Of a stretch of DNA of 64,000 nt, positions 52,260 to 61,860 are shown piece after piece (positions within the stretch are counted from its first letter, which is position 1; each line of letters begins with the position of its first letter). The position numbers were made by a program, and so were the translations under genes. The notes under the pieces are model-generated. The model was given only the letters and a program-made list of their open reading frames with translations, made no database searches and had not been told where the DNA came from. The DNA comes from Candidatus Saccharimonadales bacterium. GTDB lineage: Bacteria; Patescibacteriota; Saccharimonadia; Saccharimonadales; 2-12-FULL-41-12. The stretch spans positions 407,468 to 471,467 of the forward strand of contig JANWLD010000001.1 in NCBI GenBank assembly GCA_025451045.1. Direction: 5' to 3'.

Positions 52260-52339
52260 CTCTAATGTCAATTTTCCGTCAAAATTTTGACGGCCGTTGG
52301 AAAATTGGCGGGGATTTTTTGCTGATATAATTTGGGATT

Positions 52340-52873
52340 ATGAGAATAATTGCAGGAAGTTTGGGTGGCAGGCAGTTTGACGCGCCGAAAGGGCATCGGA
52401 CGCATCCGATGAGCGAAAAAGCCCGCGGCGGGCTATTTTCCGCTTTGGGTGATGTTGAAGGATTGACGCTGTTGGACGCGTTTGCTGGCAGCGGGGCGCT
52501 TTCTTTTGAAGCTGTCAGCCAGGGCGTGAAACATGCGACCGCCATAGATATTGACATAAGTGCTATTACCACCGTTGTCAATAGTGCTGTAAAACTTGGA
52601 ATTAAGCCTCAAGTTAAGGCTATCCGAGCCAATGTTTCCGGCTGGAGCGACAATAACCCGGATGTGAAATTCGATATCATAATCTGCGATCCGCCATTTG
52701 ACCAGTTTAAGGTACAGCTTATCCAAAAATTAGTTAAACATCTGGTCAAAAACGGTGTTTTTGTCGTTAATATGCCGAGTTCCTCAGGCGAATCAGAGAT
52801 ACAAGGCTTAAAAATGGTTAAAACCAAAGTTTACGGAGACACAACTTTGGTTTTTTACAAAAGACTATCTTAG
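52340..52873 (+). CDS. rsmD: 16S rRNA (guanine966-N2)-methyltransferase
   Basis: MRIIAGSLGGR, DAFAGSGA and CDPPF motifs. Confidence 0.85.
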   Translation: MRIIAGSLGGRQFDAPKGHRTHPMSEKARGGLFSALGDVEGLTLLDAFAGSGALSFEAVSQGVKHATAIDIDISAITTVVNSAVKLGIKPQVKAIRANVSGWSDNNPDVKFDIIICDPPFDQFKVQLIQKLVKHLVKNGVFVVNMPSSSGESEIQGLKMVKTKVYGDTTLVFYKRLS

Positions 52874-53877: not shown

Positions 53878-54135
53878 GGGGATGTGGTGGAATTGGTAGA
53901 CATTTACCTGGTAGTAAAGTTCTGGAGGCGCGGTGGTGGAATTGGTAGACACGCTAGTTTTAGGAACTAGTGCCGCAAGGTGTGAGAGTTCGAGTCTCTC
54001 CCGCGCCACCAAAACTTTTACTACTGGGCGCTAGTCCCAGCACTAAAGCAAAGCTTAGTGCTGGACTTTGCTTAGGAACTAGCGTGAAGGTTAGCTTGGT
54101 GCGATAGCCCAAGCGCTGTCCTTTCATCCCCACCA
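53878..54135 (+). pseudogene. disrupted tRNA-Leu-like gene enclosing the intact tRNA-Leu
   Basis: Acceptor 5' strand plus D-arm lie at 53878-53903. CGCTAGT (54029-54035) and TTAGGAACTAG (54072-54082) are anticodon-arm pieces. CATCCCC+ACCA (54125-54135) is complementary to GGGGATG at the 5' end. No T-arm is present. Confidence 0.45.
53927..54011 (+). tRNA. tRNA-Leu (anticodon UAG), type II, CCA encoded
   Basis: Manual cloverleaf: acceptor GGCGCGG/CCGCGCC, D-arm GTG-GAATTGGTAGA-CAC, anticodon arm CTAGT-TTTAGGA-ACTAG, 13-nt variable arm, T-arm GAGAG-TTCGAGT-CTCTC, then ACCA. Confidence 0.9.
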
Positions 54136-54137
54136 AA

Positions 54138-54167
54138 TTGACATAAGCGGATTAAGTGTGTTATAAT
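54138..54167 (+). promoter_or_regulatory. near-consensus promoter of the hisS/his operon leader
   Basis: TTGACA (54138-54143), an 18-nt spacer ending in TGT, then TATAAT (54162-54167). The predicted TSS coincides with the A of ATG 54174. Confidence 0.65.
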
Positions 54168-54173
54168 AAAATC

Positions 54174-54236
54174 ATGGTTATAAAGCTAACTAATCAGCAT
54201 CATATACATCTATCGCCGGAGCTGTCGGTTAGTTAA
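54174..54236 (+). CDS. candidate his leader peptide MVIKLTNQHHIHLSPELSVS (20 aa, leaderless)
   Basis: ATG lies 7 nt after the -10 box. Three His codons fall within four positions (54198-54209). TAA stop at 54234-54236, followed by a terminator. Confidence 0.55.
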   Translation: MVIKLTNQHHIHLSPELSVS

Positions 54237-54259
54237 CTTTTGTCTTAATAAAAACACAT

Positions 54260-54286
54260 AACGCCGGACACGCTCCGGCGTTTTTT
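54260..54286 (+). terminator. intrinsic terminator (attenuator) in the hisS leader
   Basis: AACGCCGGA-CACGC-TCCGGCGTT followed by TTTTTT. The upstream CGCCGGAGC (54214-54222) can alternatively pair with the 3' arm GCTCCGGCG (54272-54280). Confidence 0.75.
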
Positions 54287-54331
54287 ATAGATTTAATAAA
54301 TATTAGAATATACTTTAACGAAAGGAAAGTT

Positions 54332-55624
54332 ATGAAAAAGGGAGTTGAACCCGCAATTTTGAAAGGAACCAGGGATTTTCTGCCCGCTGATATGGCGCAG
54401 AGGAATGAGGTTTTGGCCAAAATAAAAAACACTTTTGAAAAATTTGGTTACCAACAGATAGAAACACCTATCTTAAGCTATGCCGAAACGATATTAGGCA
54501 AAGAAAAAGAGAACAGTCAGAAGATGGCTTATTCGTTCAAAGATTATGGCGAGCGCGATATTGCCTTGCCGTTTGACTTGACCATGCCTTTTTCCCGGTT
54601 TGTTGCGGCTAACTGGCGGGATCTGCCGATACCGTTCAAGCGCTTCCAAATCCAGCGGGTATGGCGCGCCGAACGGCCGCAACGCGGGCGTCTGCGTGAA
54701 TTTTACCAATGCGACGTAGATATCATCGGTTCAAACGAGCTGGTCTGCGAGGCTGAAATTGCCAAATTGATTACTCAGGTTTTCGATGAGCTAAAAATCA
54801 AAGATATAAAAATACGCGTAAATTCGCGGAAACTACTAAATGAAATATTGACTGGGTTCGGTGTCGAAAAAGATAACCTGATACCAGCTATACGGCTGAT
54901 AGATAAACTGGACAAAATCGACAACACGGCGGTAGTAGAAGGGCTAAAGAAGCTAGGTATAAAAAACGCCGCCGAGATTATCGGGGTACTCAAAACGGAT
55001 AAAGACAACCAAGCCACCCTGAAACAGCTTGAAGCATACGATACGACGGACTTGCAGGAATTTTTGCGTTTGAGCCGTGAATTCGGAGTTGATGAAACGC
55101 GATTGGTACTTGATCCCGGCCTGGCACGAGGGCTGGATTATTACACCGGAATAATCTTTGAAGTTGTTTCAAGCGATGAAAGCCTTGGTACTATCTGCGC
55201 CGGCGGCCGTTATGATGATTTGTCGGCGATGTTCTCAAGCAAGGAATTCTCCGGTATCGGCGTATCCTTTGGCTTCGAGCGAATCATGCTGTTTATGCAG
55301 GAAAACGGGCTTATTGCCGACGGCAAGCCAAGTTCCAGAGTATTGATAACGGTTTTTGACGAAGGTTCGCTGGATGGGTCGATAAAAATCTACAAATCAC
55401 TGCTCAAAGCCAGTGTTCCGGCGGAGATTTATCTGGATGAAACCAACCTCTCCAAACAGTTTAAATATGCTGATAAAAAGAATATACCGTTTGTCGTAGT
55501 GCAAGGCCCGGATGAGCTTCGCGACAACGAGGTGATTGTACGAAGAATGAGTAATGGCAACCAAAAGAAAATTCCTGCCAGCCAGCTTGCTTCCTACATA
55601 GCAGGTTATTATGAAGCGAACTAA
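54332..55624 (+). CDS. hisS: histidine--tRNA ligase
   Basis: Class II motif 2 (RVWRAERPQRGRLREFYQCDVDIIG), GGRYDDL, motif 3 (GVSFGFERI) and a complete C-terminal anticodon-binding domain. Confidence 0.85.
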   Translation: MKKGVEPAILKGTRDFLPADMAQRNEVLAKIKNTFEKFGYQQIETPILSYAETILGKEKENSQKMAYSFKDYGERDIALPFDLTMPFSRFVAANWRDLPIPFKRFQIQRVWRAERPQRGRLREFYQCDVDIIGSNELVCEAEIAKLITQVFDELKIKDIKIRVNSRKLLNEILTGFGVEKDNLIPAIRLIDKLDKIDNTAVVEGLKKLGIKNAAEIIGVLKTDKDNQATLKQLEAYDTTDLQEFLRLSREFGVDETRLVLDPGLARGLDYYTGIIFEVVSSDESLGTICAGGRYDDLSAMFSSKEFSGIGVSFGFERIMLFMQENGLIADGKPSSRVLITVFDEGSLDGSIKIYKSLLKASVPAEIYLDETNLSKQFKYADKKNIPFVVVQGPDELRDNEVIVRRMSNGNQKKIPASQLASYIAGYYEAN

Positions 55625-56237
55625 TATCCGAATAGCCATCCAAAAATCCGGCCGGTTGAGAGCAAAGAGCGAGAAGCTGTTAAATGAATGGGGCATTGAC
55701 TGTGAAGCCGATAATAAAGGCCGGTTGGTCATTCCCTGCAACGGAGGCGAATTTGAGATTTTGTTTGTACGTTATGGCGATATTCCGGAGTATGTAGCCA
55801 GCGGGGTGGCTGATTTCGGTATCGTCGGCCAGAATATCTTGTATGAAGACCGGTTTAATGTTGGCGTGGTCAAGCAGTTGGGCTTTGGCGAATGCCGTTT
55901 GATTGTTGCCGCTCCAAAGCGTTCATCGATAAAAACGGTGGCGGATTTGGAAGGCGAACGCATAGCGACATCTTACCCGAACAGCTTGCGAAAATTCCTG
56001 AAAAAAGAGCGTTTGGGCGCGACTATCATCAAAATCCGCGGCGGAGTGGAAGCCGCTCCGGCCATAGGCTTGGCTGACGCCGTGTGCGACCTTACCCAGA
56101 CGGGTAAGACTTTGGACGCCAACGGACTGAAAATAATCGCTACAGTGCTGGAATCCCAGGCTGTATTGATTGAATCCAAATTCTTATCGGCCAAAGCCGA
56201 AAAGTTCAAAGAAAAAGTGTTACAGGCCGCATCATGA
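55611..56237 (+). CDS. hisG: ATP phosphoribosyltransferase, short form
   Basis: 208-aa HisG catalytic core without the C-terminal regulatory domain. The ATG overlaps the hisS 3' end by 14 nt. Confidence 0.9.
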   Translation: MKRTNIRIAIQKSGRLRAKSEKLLNEWGIDCEADNKGRLVIPCNGGEFEILFVRYGDIPEYVASGVADFGIVGQNILYEDRFNVGVVKQLGFGECRLIVAAPKRSSIKTVADLEGERIATSYPNSLRKFLKKERLGATIIKIRGGVEAAPAIGLADAVCDLTQTGKTLDANGLKIIATVLESQAVLIESKFLSAKAEKFKEKVLQAAS

Positions 56238-56833
56238 TAGCCGTTGTTGATTATGACGCCGGTAATATCGGCTCGGTTGCCAATGCCTTAAAGCGTTTGG
56301 GGGCTAAGTTTGAAGTTACTTCCGATACCGACACAATACGCAAAGCCGACGGAGTAATCTTCCCCGGCCAAGGCAGAGCTGGGCCGGCTTTGAAGTCGCT
56401 TCAAAAATCCGGCCTGGACAAGCTGTTGCCAAGTTTAAAACAACCGTTTCTTGGAATTTGCCTAGGGATGCAGTTAATGGTTGAAAAACTGGAAGAAGAT
56501 AATCAAACCGGGCTGGGAATCGTTCCGGGCAAGTGCGAACTTTTTAAAGATATCAGTCCGGTGCCGCACATGGGCTGGAACAAAGTTAATATTGTGCAGG
56601 ACTCCAAGCTCCTTGCTGGCCTTAAAAGCGGTTCTTACCAGTATTTTGTGCACAGTTACGCTGTTAAAACCGATAAGGAGTTCACTGTTGCGGTTACCGA
56701 TTATGGCGGAGAATTTGCCAGCGCGGTTAACAGAGATAACTTTTATGGCGTCCAATTTCACCCTGAGAAGTCAGCAGAAGCCGGCGAGCAGATACTTAAT
56801 AATTTTTTAATAATCTGTGGAGAGAAAAGGTGA
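56234..56833 (+). CDS. hisH: imidazole glycerol phosphate synthase, glutaminase subunit
   Basis: Class I GATase with GICLGMQL and HSY..., then FHPEKS. Confidence 0.9.
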   Translation: MIAVVDYDAGNIGSVANALKRLGAKFEVTSDTDTIRKADGVIFPGQGRAGPALKSLQKSGLDKLLPSLKQPFLGICLGMQLMVEKLEEDNQTGLGIVPGKCELFKDISPVPHMGWNKVNIVQDSKLLAGLKSGSYQYFVHSYAVKTDKEFTVAVTDYGGEFASAVNRDNFYGVQFHPEKSAEAGEQILNNFLIICGEKR

Positions 56834-57540
56834 TCGTTTATCCCGCTATTGATTTGATAAATCGTAAAGCTGTGCGTTTGGAGCAAGGCAATTACGACAA
56901 AAAGACAGAATACTCTGATAACCCTATTGAGATAGCCCAAAAATTTGAGTCTGAAGGCGCTGAGTATATCCACATTGTTGACTTGGACGGCGCCAAAACC
57001 AAACGGCCCGTTAATATGGACGTGATTAAAGACATTGCAAAATCCATTAACATTCCTGTTCAGGTTGGCGGCGGTATCCGTACGCTACGCTCGGTCGAAG
57101 AGTTGCTTGAATATGCCAAAAGAGTGATTATCGGTACGATTGCGGTGACCGAACCGGAGGTGTTAGAACAGATGGTTAAAAAAATCGGCTCCGACAAGAT
57201 AGTCGTATCTGTTGACTACAAGAATGGATCGCCAGCTATAAACGGCTGGTTGGAAGAAGTTAAGTTAACCACAGAGGCCTTGCAGGTCCGTCTGAGCGGT
57301 TTAGGTATCCGAACAGTCATAGTTACCGATACGGATAAAGACGGCATCTTAAGCGGTCCTAACATTAAACTGATGAAACAGTGGAAACAAGCCGGGTTTG
57401 ATACGATCTGCGCCGGAGGGGTAACAACTGTCAATGATATAGCAGAACTTGCTGCAGCCAATATCGATGGTGCGATAATTGGCAAGGCGCTTTATGAAGA
57501 TAGGATAACTTTAAAGGAAGCTATAGATGCTGGCGAATAG
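56830..57540 (+). CDS. hisA: ProFAR isomerase
   Basis: YPAIDL...VRL.QG, HIVDLDGA and GGGIR motifs. GTG start overlaps the hisH stop. Confidence 0.9.
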   Translation: MIVYPAIDLINRKAVRLEQGNYDKKTEYSDNPIEIAQKFESEGAEYIHIVDLDGAKTKRPVNMDVIKDIAKSINIPVQVGGGIRTLRSVEELLEYAKRVIIGTIAVTEPEVLEQMVKKIGSDKIVVSVDYKNGSPAINGWLEEVKLTTEALQVRLSGLGIRTVIVTDTDKDGILSGPNIKLMKQWKQAGFDTICAGGVTTVNDIAELAAANIDGAIIGKALYEDRITLKEAIDAGE

Positions 57541-58384
57541 GATCATACCGTGCATGGACATCAAAGACGGCCGGGTGGTCAAGGGCACCCATTTCAAAGA
57601 TTTGGTTGATAGCGGCGATCCGCTAGAGCTTGCTAAGAAATATGCTGACCAAGGCGCCGATGAGCTAGTACTTCTGGATATCGTCGCTACTGTCGAGGAG
57701 CGCAAAAATCGGGCCGGATTGGTCCGGGCTGTTGCCGAGGCCATTGCCATTCCTTTTAGCGTTGGCGGCGGCGTAAGCGAGCTATCCCACATCAACGAAC
57801 TTTTAAATGCCGGGGCAGATAAAGTATCTATCGGCTCGGCCGCAGTGACTGATGCGGGCTTTGTTAAAAAAGCCTGTGACAGATTCGGCTCCCAAGCGAT
57901 AATTATCTCCCTTGACCCGAAAAGAGTTATTGATAGCGGCAATCCATTTGCTTCAACAGAGCGCTCTACAGGTGAGCCTACGGCTCAGCCTGTGGCGCTA
58001 GCAGACTCAATTGAAACAAACAGATTACCGCTTTTAAAGTGGGATGTTTATATAAAAGGCGGCCGTGAAAATACCGGAGTTGATGTGATAGAATTTGCCA
58101 AAAAAATGGAAAAATTGGGCGTAGGCGAACTTTTAGTCAATAGCCTTGACCGCGACGGTACTAAAAAAGGCTTTGACATAGAGCTTTTAGATAAAATATC
58201 AAAATCTGTGAATATTCCGGTGATTGCCAGTAGTGGTGCCGGCAGGATCGATGATTTTGTGGAAGTCTTTAAAAGAACCGGTGTCACGGCGGCATTGGGC
58301 GCGTCTGTGTTTCACGGGCGGCAATTTACAGTTGGGGACGTAAAGGCTAGACTAAAACTAGAGGGAATAGAGGTCAGACAATGA
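57527..58384 (+). CDS. hisF: imidazole glycerol phosphate synthase, cyclase subunit
   Basis: RIIPCMDIKDGRVVKG, DRDGTKKGFD and ASSGAG motifs. It has a loop about 30 aa longer than compact HisF proteins. Confidence 0.9.
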   Translation: MLANRIIPCMDIKDGRVVKGTHFKDLVDSGDPLELAKKYADQGADELVLLDIVATVEERKNRAGLVRAVAEAIAIPFSVGGGVSELSHINELLNAGADKVSIGSAAVTDAGFVKKACDRFGSQAIIISLDPKRVIDSGNPFASTERSTGEPTAQPVALADSIETNRLPLLKWDVYIKGGRENTGVDVIEFAKKMEKLGVGELLVNSLDRDGTKKGFDIELLDKISKSVNIPVIASSGAGRIDDFVEVFKRTGVTAALGASVFHGRQFTVGDVKARLKLEGIEVRQ

Positions 58385-58710
58385 GCCAAAAAACGAATAA
58401 ATTGGATTTTGCTAAAAACGGCGGATTGGTACCGGCAATTATCCAGGACAACGAATCCGACATGGTTTATATGCTGGGATACATGAACGAGGAAGCGTAC
58501 GCCAAAACTAAACAGTCTGACTGGGTACATTTCTGGAGCCGCAGTAAAAACCGAATTTGGATGAAGGGCGAAGAGTCCGGCAACAAACTAAAAGTCGTTT
58601 CTATATTTGAAGATTGCGACCAAGACACATTGCTTATAAAAGTAAAACTACACGGCGAAGCGGTTTGCCATACCGGACATCTGAGTTGTTTTTATGAAGA
58701 AATTAAATAA
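58381..58710 (+). CDS. hisI: phosphoribosyl-AMP cyclohydrolase
   Basis: GLVPAIIQD, WSRSKNRIWMKGEESGN and DCDQDTLL...CHTG motifs. Confidence 0.9.
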   Translation: MSQKTNKLDFAKNGGLVPAIIQDNESDMVYMLGYMNEEAYAKTKQSDWVHFWSRSKNRIWMKGEESGNKLKVVSIFEDCDQDTLLIKVKLHGEAVCHTGHLSCFYEEIK

Positions 58711-58719
58711 GGAGAAAGC

Positions 58720-58995
58720 ATGACATTGGACGAACTGTATAACCTAATTGAAGATAGAAAAAAGAATAAACCAACAGGCTCATATGTGGCATCTTTGTTT
58801 GAAGAAGGGCAAGACCGCATAACCCAGAAAGTCGGCGAAGAAGCGGTTGAAGTAGTGATTGCCGCTAACAGAGGCCAAAAAACCGAACTCGTAGCGGAAA
58901 TGGCCGACCTTTGGTTCCACTGCTTGATTTTATTATCATCCGCAGGTATTAAGCCCGAAGAAGTATTGGCTGAACTCGAAAAACGCAAGAAGTAA
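58720..58995 (+). CDS. hisE: phosphoribosyl-ATP pyrophosphatase
   Basis: SYVASLFEEG...KVGEEAVEVVIA...ELVAEMADLWFHCLILL (MazG-like HisE). Confidence 0.9.
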   Translation: MTLDELYNLIEDRKKNKPTGSYVASLFEEGQDRITQKVGEEAVEVVIAANRGQKTELVAEMADLWFHCLILLSSAGIKPEEVLAELEKRKK

Positions 58996-61185: not shown

Positions 61186-61208
61186 CACTCAACCTTGACG
61201 AGTGCTAA
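61182..61208. promoter_or_regulatory. CIRCE operator (HrcA binding site) upstream of clpP
   Basis: TTAGCACTC-AACCTTGAC-GAGTGCTAA is a perfect consensus. TTGACG (61195-61200), a 17-nt gap and TAAAAT (61218-61223) place the TSS at about the clpP ATG. Confidence 0.85.
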
Positions 61209-61230
61209 TTCGTTATATAAAATAAAGAAC

Positions 61231-61860
61231 ATGAGTGAACCGAAAAAATCTATTCTTATCCCGACCGTTATTGAGCAGGAAGGTCGGGTTGAGCGGGCTT
61301 ATGATATCTATAGCCGCCTGCTGAAAGACAATATTATTTTCCTCGGCACCGATGTAAACGAGCATACAGCTAATTTGGTTGTCGCCCAGTTGTTGTTTTT
61401 GGCTAATGAAAACCCGAATAAAGACATCAAGCTTTATATCAATAGTCCCGGCGGCAGTGTTTATGACGCCTTGGCGATTTATGACACTATGCAGTTTGTT
61501 AAAAATGACATCCAGACTGTCGGTATCGGTATCCAGGCCAGCGCGGCGGCATTTTTGCTAAGCAGCGGCACAAAGGGTAAACGCTCAATCTTGGAACACG
61601 CCTCGGTGATGATACACCAGCCGTCCAGCGGTACCCGTGGTAAAGTCACCGACCAGGAAATCGATTTGCGTGAAGCTCTTCGAGTTAAAAAACTGCTTGA
61701 AGAAATAATGGCCAAAAACACCGGCCAAAAACCTGACAAGATTCACCATGATATGGAACGCGACCTTTGGATGACAGCCGATGAGGCCAAGAAGTATGGC
61801 CTTGTCGACGAAATCATCACCACGAGCCCAGCAGCACGGCCAAAAACCTCCAAAAAATAA
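61231..61860 (+). CDS. clpP: ATP-dependent Clp protease proteolytic subunit
   Basis: Start moved to ATG 61231. [21 protein letters not shown], a [11 protein letters not shown] Ser site and MIHQP are present. Confidence 0.9.

Follow-up and report, generated by a model that had tools for sequence, protein, structure and literature searches.

Histidine leader peptides are classical in enterobacteria, and in Escherichia coli the pheM leader peptide, rich in the cognate amino acid, controls the aminoacyl-tRNA synthetase genes pheST. The present analysis concerns a short leader located in front of the genes hisS-hisGHAFIE on a 64,000-nucleotide (nt) stretch of DNA from a Candidatus Saccharimonadales bacterium (contig JANWLD010000001.1, positions 407,468-471,467 of the forward strand), hereafter called the window. 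This leader is very likely a histidine-specific, ribosome-mediated transcription attenuator of the trpL/hisL type, which would act on transcripts running from a promoter named P1 into hisS-hisGHAFIE. Histidine leader peptides have also been predicted in Firmicutes, namely in the Bacillus cereus group before hisZ and before the hisS paralogue hisS*, and in Peptostreptococcaceae and Erysipelotrichales; they comprise three to five His codons, and T-boxes or the TrpR-family repressor HisR are found in their place in other cases (PMC2965389, PMC9413887). The initial annotation of the window had related the architecture to enterobacterial operons, a comparison that was too narrow since such peptides are also known in bacilli before hisS/hisZ paralogues (PMC2965389, PMC9413887). 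Leaderless short open reading frames (ORFs) serving as amino-acid-responsive attenuators have been described in mycobacteria, with polycysteine ORFs (bioRxiv 10.1101/834739), and leaderless leader peptides were seen in the transcriptome of Corynebacterium glutamicum (PMC3890552). Full-text searches found no literature reports of leader peptides or attenuation in Patescibacteria or the candidate phyla radiation (CPR), and de novo synthesis of amino acids is described as absent from Saccharibacteria (PMC7427843).

The leader of the window shares with enterobacterial hisL (RF00514) a short ORF with His codons, mutually exclusive antiterminator and terminator structures, a predicted selection of the antiterminator by ribosome stalling, and his genes as the controlled genes. 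However, it is not matched by the Rfam model, its mRNA is probably leaderless rather than Shine-Dalgarno-led, the ORF contains the entire antiterminator strand, hisS would be the first gene under control, and three to four His codons are arranged in an HHxH pattern, whereas E. coli hisL has seven His codons in a row. With the Firmicutes leaders, compared here by description and not by sequence, it has in common a leader peptide, a terminator and an antiterminator before a HisRS-family gene that heads his genes; it differs by its lineage (Patescibacteria, Saccharimonadales), by its leaderless layout and by a synthetase that is a bona fide HisRS according to the family models. As in the leaderless attenuators of Actinobacteria, a short ORF would stand at the 5' end of the transcript, as judged here from promoter spacing, with cognate codons sensing the amino-acid supply; however, the amino acid and the lineage are different and the element of the window has a clear intrinsic terminator. 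In pheST, a synthetase gene is likewise placed under a cognate leader peptide, but here the synthetase gene belongs to a biosynthetic operon, so that a single attenuator would serve both tRNA charging and histidine synthesis. Judged from its sequence, the leader is thus a new family of a known mechanism, new for the lineage and mostly leaderless. The mechanism itself is of textbook type, and the value of the case lies in the lineage and its biology, together with a clean example of regulator swap.

The leader was compared in 11 sequences, i.e. the window and ten relatives. A search of relatives for short ORFs with clustered His codons and a terminator, which had been suggested upstream of hisS/hisG in the initial annotation, gave the element in ten related loci, with the ORF and its His codons conserved. 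Eleven loci were retrieved via their HisS proteins, nine of which carry the same leader before hisS-hisG (L081, L082, L083, L204, L205, L206, L207, L209 and L210; HisS 61-78% identical) and two of which do not (L208 and L211), and a tenth copy (L103, a metagenome contig) came from a metagenome pattern scan. The 20-codon ORF from ATG 54174 with three His codons in four positions was confirmed (Table 1). In all 11 sequences, an ATG-to-stop run passes through the leader in one frame only, giving an in-frame ORF of 18-20 codons while the other two frames are closed. The peptides follow the consensus M..(L)T(N/D)(Q/H)HHxH..PE(L/R)(V/L)G*, with three to four His, and HHxH or HHHxH is present in 11/11. 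In the alignment of the 11 sequences (A2), the first and second positions of the His codons are invariant and the third changes only from T to C; the codon before the cluster is CAG or CAT (Gln or a fourth His), the codon x between the His codons is hypervariable, with changes at all three positions, and upstream of the His cluster indels come in multiples of three. From the sequences, the PE(L/R)VG residues appear to be explained by pairing of the antiterminator strand and LTN by pairing of region 1, so that constraint at the codon level is confined to the His codons. The leader stop codon lies directly 3' of the antiterminator strand and is kept there in the ten related loci; in region 2 of the window, a 1-nt deletion moves the stop from the usual TAG to a TAA four bases further on, and the conserved GGTTAGTTAA provides stops in two frames. 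The pattern CAYCAYNNNCAY alone occurs three times in the window versus 2.63 times expected, with no excess over chance, so that one sequence would be insufficient for the claim; the significance of the leader therefore comes from the combination of its elements and from their conservation among relatives.

Table 1. Features of the leader region, the his operon and the related loci. Coordinates are those of the window unless a locus is named.
Feature	Coordinates	Strand	Sequence	Remarks
Promoter P1	54138-54167	+	-35 TTGACA (54138-54143), 18-nt spacer, extended -10 TGTTATAAT (54159-54167)	12/12, with TG
Leader ORF and peptide, window	54174-54236	+	MVIKLTNQHHIHLSPELSVS	20 codons plus TAA (54234-54236); in frame in all 11 sequences
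Region 1	54187-54195	+	TAACTAATC	5' strand of a possible protector helix, partner 54227-54235; tentative
Putative regulatory His codons	54198-54209	+	CAT CAT ATA CAT	Codons 9, 10 and 12; conserved codon pattern
Region 2	54214-54235	+	Antiterminator 5' strand CGCCGGAGCTGTCGGT (54214-54229) within the ORF; GGTTAGTTA (54227-54235), partner of region 1	Minimum free energy fold and RNAalifold consensus
Intrinsic terminator (regions 3 and 4)	54260-54286	+	AACGCCGGA-CACGC-TCCGGCGTT, then TTTTTT	9-bp stem 54260-54282, 6 G-C
Conserved -10-like element	54304-54314	+	TAGAATATACT	17 nt 5' of hisS ATG
hisS	54332-55624	+		Histidine--tRNA ligase, 430 aa, predicted first regulated gene; TIGR00442 385 bits versus cut-off 287
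hisG, short form (208 aa)	55611-56237	+		NCBIfam/Pfam above cut-off
hisH	56234-56833	+		NCBIfam/Pfam above cut-off
hisA	56830-57540	+		NCBIfam/Pfam above cut-off
hisF	57527-58384	+		NCBIfam/Pfam above cut-off
hisI	58381-58710	+		NCBIfam/Pfam above cut-off
hisE	58720-58995	+		NCBIfam/Pfam above cut-off
TrpR-family gene, L208	2197-2508			PF01371
TrpR-family gene, L211	2075-2371			PF01371
Leader peptide, L081			MVKQLTDQHHTHLLPERVG	
Leader peptide, L082			MVKQLINQHHTHLLPELVG	
Leader peptide, L083			MFYITDQHHAHTSPERVG	
Leader peptide, L204			MVYQLTNHHHVHMLPELVG	
Leader peptide, L205			MVIQLTNQHHSHPLPERVG	
Leader peptide, L206			MFKTYSNQHHLHLSPERLG	
Leader peptide, L207			MIYLTNHHHDHICPELVG	
Leader peptide, L209			MNTFNYTNHHHLHLSPELVG	
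Leader peptide, L103			MNLLNLTNQHHAHILPERVG	
Leader peptide, L210			MYLSNLTNQHHSHLSPELVG	

P1, which had been annotated as a near-consensus promoter, is present as described and is the sole perfect match (12/12) in the 3 kb that were scanned for promoters and terminators; its TATAAT ends at 54167 and is preceded by TG. A TTGnnn-17/18-TAnnnT promoter occupies the equivalent position in 10/10 relatives, often with an extended TG. The leader ATG of the window lies 6 nt past the -10, and the leader mRNA is accordingly predicted to be leaderless, as had been proposed. This proposal fits the promoter geometry of the window and agrees with the spacing of 6-8 nt found in 8 of the 11 sequences; it is not universal, since the distance is 11 nt in L206 and 17 nt, including an AGG, in L103 and L210. 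A leaderless or near-leaderless start thus appears to be the rule among the 11 sequences. In the window, the ATG of rsmD (52340) and that of a 209-aa ORF (61231) also stand 7-8 nt past a TTGnnn-17-TAnnnT promoter (52300-52342 and 61195-61233, respectively). This shared promoter-to-ATG spacing makes leaderless initiation plausible in this organism and points to a broader use of leaderless mRNAs across its genome. hisS itself is preceded by a Shine-Dalgarno sequence, AAGGAA. A 16-nt direct repeat, 81% identical, links positions 54159-54174 (TGTTATAATAAAATCA) and 54241-54256 (TGTCTTAATAAAAACA, located between the leader stop and the terminator) and is probably a fortuitous A+T-rich similarity.

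The segment 54174-54295 folds with a minimum free energy (MFE) of -33.5 kcal/mol (z = -4.75), no shuffled sequence being as stable. The antiterminator core CGCCGGAGC (54214-54222) is, as had been noted, a perfect 9-nt complement of the terminator 3' arm (54272-54280), but the actual pairing is longer: in the MFE structure, 54214-54229 (CGCCGGAGCUGUCGGU, codons 14-19) pairs with nearly the whole terminator hairpin and not with its 3' arm alone, so that the antiterminator strand, in this model, almost reproduces the terminator's reverse complement. The terminator was found where it had been placed, 45 nt before the hisS ATG (54332), the only correction being that its distance from the ORF stop is 23 nt and not 24. 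With the terminator forced, the energy of the window RNA is -27.8 kcal/mol versus -32.1 kcal/mol in the antiterminator state, and the RNAalifold consensus structure across the relatives is the antiterminator. Measured as the share of paired cells in the alignment, with slid registers as control, the terminator reaches 96.7% (controls 38-52%), with two pairs changed on both sides, and the antiterminator, over 10 sequences, 95.3% (controls 26-48%), with three pairs changed on both sides. In L207, GCCCGG, CCCCGA and TCGGGG replace CGCCGG, GCCGGA and TCCGGC in region 2 and in both terminator arms, and both structures are preserved; these joint changes would be the signature expected of a switch, as seen in a single sequence. 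Regarding region 1, a second pairing had been proposed between 54184-54193 and 54229-54238; nine of its ten positions can pair, but this register was dropped in favour of the conserved one between 54187-54195 (TAACTAATC) and 54227-54235 (GGTTAGTTA), which itself has no significant covariation. The complementarity between TTAACTAACC, immediately 5' of the His codons, and GGTTAGTTAA, which spans the end of region 2 and the stop codon, amounts to 85.5% of paired cells, against at most 49% in slid registers, and 62 of 500 shuffles reach the observed pairing. The region 1:2 helix is part of the free-RNA MFE structure in only 3 of 10 folded sequences (L204, L205 and L103).

The effect of a ribosome on this choice was modelled by folding 10 sequences from the leader to the T-run with a mask of -15 to +11 nt around the first A-site base. 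With the A site at the first, the second or, where present, the third His codon, the MFE structure is the antiterminator in 10/10 sequences; with the A site at the stop codon, it is the terminator in 10/10. With the A site at the last His codon, after x, the outcome varies with the footprint and is mostly the terminator. For the window, leading edges from +9 to +13 give a terminator probability of 0.00 when the ribosome stalls at His9 or His10, compared with 1.00 when it has reached the stop; the outcome of a stall at His12 flips between leading edges +9 and +11. In free RNA, the antiterminator forms in seven sequences, and the region 1:2 helix together with the terminator in L204, L205 and L103. 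This model assigns the effective sensing to the first two His codons. Constrained folding thus agrees with the expected behaviour (antiterminator upon stalling, terminator at the stop) and largely answers a caveat of the initial annotation, according to which a ribosome stalled at the last His codon would partly cover 54214-54222: this strand stays fully free when the stall occurs at either of the first two His codons, and the caveat remains pertinent for the last His codon, which is borderline. The annotation as a ribosome-mediated attenuator is supported by the ten loci, which keep the ORF frame, the (Q/H)HHxH motif, the stop position and both alternative helices.

The following sequence of events is proposed. 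The transcript would begin with the A of ATG 54174, give or take a few bases, and a ribosome would at once engage the 20-codon leader. When charged tRNA-His is ample, the ribosome would reach the stop at 54234 and mask 54214-54229, allowing the hairpin 54260-54282 to form and transcription to terminate at the T-run. When charged tRNA-His is scarce, the ribosome would stall when codon 9 or 10 occupies its A site, and would then cover region 1 without its leading edge reaching 54214; the free region 2 would then pair with the emerging terminator segment, and read-through into hisS and the his genes would follow. The -10-like element located 3' of the terminator would probably ensure a basal expression of the essential hisS. 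In the relatives, the ATATA(C/A)T core of this element (alignment A3) is invariant in 10/10 loci, 13-22 nt 5' of the hisS ATG, with diverged flanks, and in the window TAGAATATACT occurs once, besides one other site with one mismatch. No good -35 is present for the element at 54304-54314, which is probably a weak second promoter for basal hisS transcription despite attenuation. The earlier remark that TATACT (54309-54314) could bypass the terminator is thus borne out insofar as this hexamer belongs to a -10-like motif conserved in relatives, but its probable role in basal hisS transcription does not invalidate the attenuator.

Several points weigh against attenuation as the function of this leader. 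The window holds just three His codons, and these are not contiguous. Its ribosome-free RNA is computed to favour the antiterminator by about 4 kcal/mol, a preference implying that termination needs tight timing in a 113-nt transcript. In the model, a stall at the last His codon may occlude the antiterminator. The covariation in the alignment appears thin (effective sequence number of the covariance model 2.1) and comes mostly from L207, so that the two helices are supported mainly by conservation; the helix of region 1, without statistical support and with non-significant covariation, is tentative. The transcription start at 54174 is predicted from promoter geometry, and we infer that the leader is translated, that ribosome and polymerase are coupled and that the element responds to histidine. 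If the element at 54304-54314 were a strong promoter, the attenuator would be limited to part of hisS expression. Finally, in L103 the leader (MNLLNLTNQHHAHILPERVG) and its terminator are followed by an ORF (148 aa or longer; L103 1-444, minus strand) that has no recognisable link to histidine; for this ORF, no match was found in Pfam, NCBIfam or PDB, and no homologue in a collection of 5.8 billion proteins.

The genomic surroundings help to decide between attenuation and other functions. Close HisS homologues occur only in metagenome assemblies, the named ones being Candidatus Saccharimonadales, and the next most similar proteins are HisRS of Patescibacteria in general, with 55-57% identity; the gene order recG-rsmD-...-hisS is common to the window and those assemblies. 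The upstream neighbour of the leader is a tRNA-Leu gene in the window, a UPF0259 gene, on the opposite strand, in several relatives (L081, L082, L083, L207 and L210), and unrelated genes in L205 and L206. Since these neighbours vary while the leader stays with hisS-hisG, the leader appears to travel with hisS and not to be the terminator of the upstream gene. This linkage, kept in 10/11 cases despite the changing neighbours, bears on an alternative in which the leader would be an independent small gene, encoding either a functional micropeptide rich in His (for example a metal binder) or a small RNA, while the operon would be run from 54304-54314 without regulation by the leader. The strength of the terminator, the -10-like motif between terminator and hisS in all relatives and the orphan ORF of L103 would fit such a gene, but a conserved, co-varying antiterminator directed to the whole hairpin would be superfluous for a plain terminator, the stop always falls directly after the antiterminator strand, and the C-terminal and LTN residues are explained by RNA pairing, only the His codons being constrained as codons. 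We consider this alternative improbable.

A switch working without a ribosome is more improbable still. It could be a mini T-box-like RNA, with CAU facing the anticodon of tRNA-His, or a target for a TRAP/HutP-like protein on the CAU repeats; the choice between terminator and antiterminator would fit any effector, CAU is what would be expected of a T-box specifier for His, and hisS is under T-box control in many Firmicutes (PMC2965389). A histidine T-box (RF00230) likewise controls hisS and his genes through terminator versus antiterminator, in response to uncharged tRNA-His. However, the leader of only ~113 nt is too short and has no Stem I or T-box sequence, and Rfam gave no support: at the gathering threshold, the whole window yielded only the tRNA-Leu (53927-54008), with neither His_leader (RF00514) nor T-box (RF00230), and at E values up to 10 the segment 53700-54450 yielded the tRNA-Leu and noise, again without His_leader or T-box. 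Furthermore, the element has a coding signature: the ATG, 6-8 nt past the -10, is in frame with the triplets and the stop, indels are whole codons, and the changes CAT to CAC and CAG to CAT are sensible only as codons. In a third alternative, a promoter-like site, a short ORF and the terminator belonging to the upstream tRNA-Leu would lie side by side by chance. CAYCAYNNNCAY is indeed no more frequent than by chance, and, over the 3 kb scanned, shuffled sequences give promoter-like and terminator-like matches equally often. This explanation is nevertheless already effectively refuted by conservation, since the arrangement recurs in ten loci with diverged flanks, most of them without an upstream tRNA gene. 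A covariance model (R1) built from the leader element scores every member at 93-126 bits and detected no further copy in the 0.79 Mb searched (the window and 92 loci). In the metagenome pattern scan, which returned at least 120 stretches, 119 of the matches listed were chance matches without terminator and only L103 was real. In a genome-contig scan with HisS, the best loci among the matches listed were at most 40% identical, and none had a His-codon cluster and leader upstream of hisS. Three further candidate leaders (L037, L065 and L071) were rejected because their regular-expression matches fall in coding or repeat sequence.

The two retrieved loci that lack the leader, L208 (HisS 63% identical) and L211 (58%), carry instead a gene of the TrpR family (HisR-like) directly upstream of hisS-hisG. 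The comparison of these sequences points to a swap of regulators on the same operon, leader peptide versus HisR-like repressor, and recalls the alternation between leader peptides and HisR in Firmicutes. A tblastn search of the window with the TrpR-like proteins of L208 and L211 found no TrpR-family gene. A HisR operator in the leader was also considered and dropped, as the window has no TrpR-family gene and no site of the TTTAnnnnnnTAAA type was recognised by eye. In L211, the TrpR-family gene has a G+C-rich hairpin and a T-run of its own on its 3' side.

The gene content hisS-hisGHAFIE downstream of the leader was confirmed by family models. HisS stays below the cut-off of the hisZ model and has the full set of catalytic HisRS motifs, with motifs 2 and 3 as well as LARGLDYY. 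Most of the his genes overlap or abut, which suggests translational coupling; hisS and hisG overlap by 14 nt in the window, and their coupling is kept in 11/11 HisS-retrieved relatives. Short-form HisG normally depends on the HisRS-like subunit HisZ. No hisZ was found in the window, and, judging from gene content, the housekeeping HisRS may double as HisZ. Likewise, hisD, hisC and hisB were not found in the window. In the relatives, hisH directly follows hisG in L081, L083 and L207, as in the window, and hisD directly follows hisG in L082, L204-L206, L209 and L211, with hisC next in L082, L204-L206 and L211; the order in L208 is hisS-G-C-D.

If the leader works as an attenuator, some environmental Saccharimonadales retain seven or more genes of the histidine pathway, if not the pathway as a whole, and tune them to tRNA-His charging; ribosomes follow closely behind RNA polymerase in these bacteria, and leaderless initiation is probably in use. 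Almost nothing is known of gene regulation in CPR bacteria, usually described as epibionts unable to make amino acids de novo (PMC7427843), and the leader, compact (~113 nt) and well defined, lends itself to in vitro assays where the organisms themselves do not grow in isolation. A more far-reaching reading would combine an independently evolved, CPR-specific family of leaderless attenuators, a first evidence of tight coupling, a regulated histidine synthesis of their own and a housekeeping HisRS that, its gene being translationally coupled to short-form hisG, may also act as HisZ, the regulatory subunit of ATP phosphoribosyltransferase; taken jointly, these propositions are rather unlikely and are offered as speculation.

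The flank upstream of the leader presents additional repeats. An exact 19-nt copy of the 5' part of the tRNA-Leu gene (53927-54011) lies upstream of it (53884-53902), and an 11-nt repeat of the anticodon arm, TTAGGAACTAG (54072-54082), and a 10-bp hairpin (54037-54064) are located on its 3' side. In the relatives, a UPF0259 gene stands at the place of the tRNA-Leu. The repeats and the hairpin (53884-54086) look like remnants of a rearrangement or of an integration at the tRNA gene.

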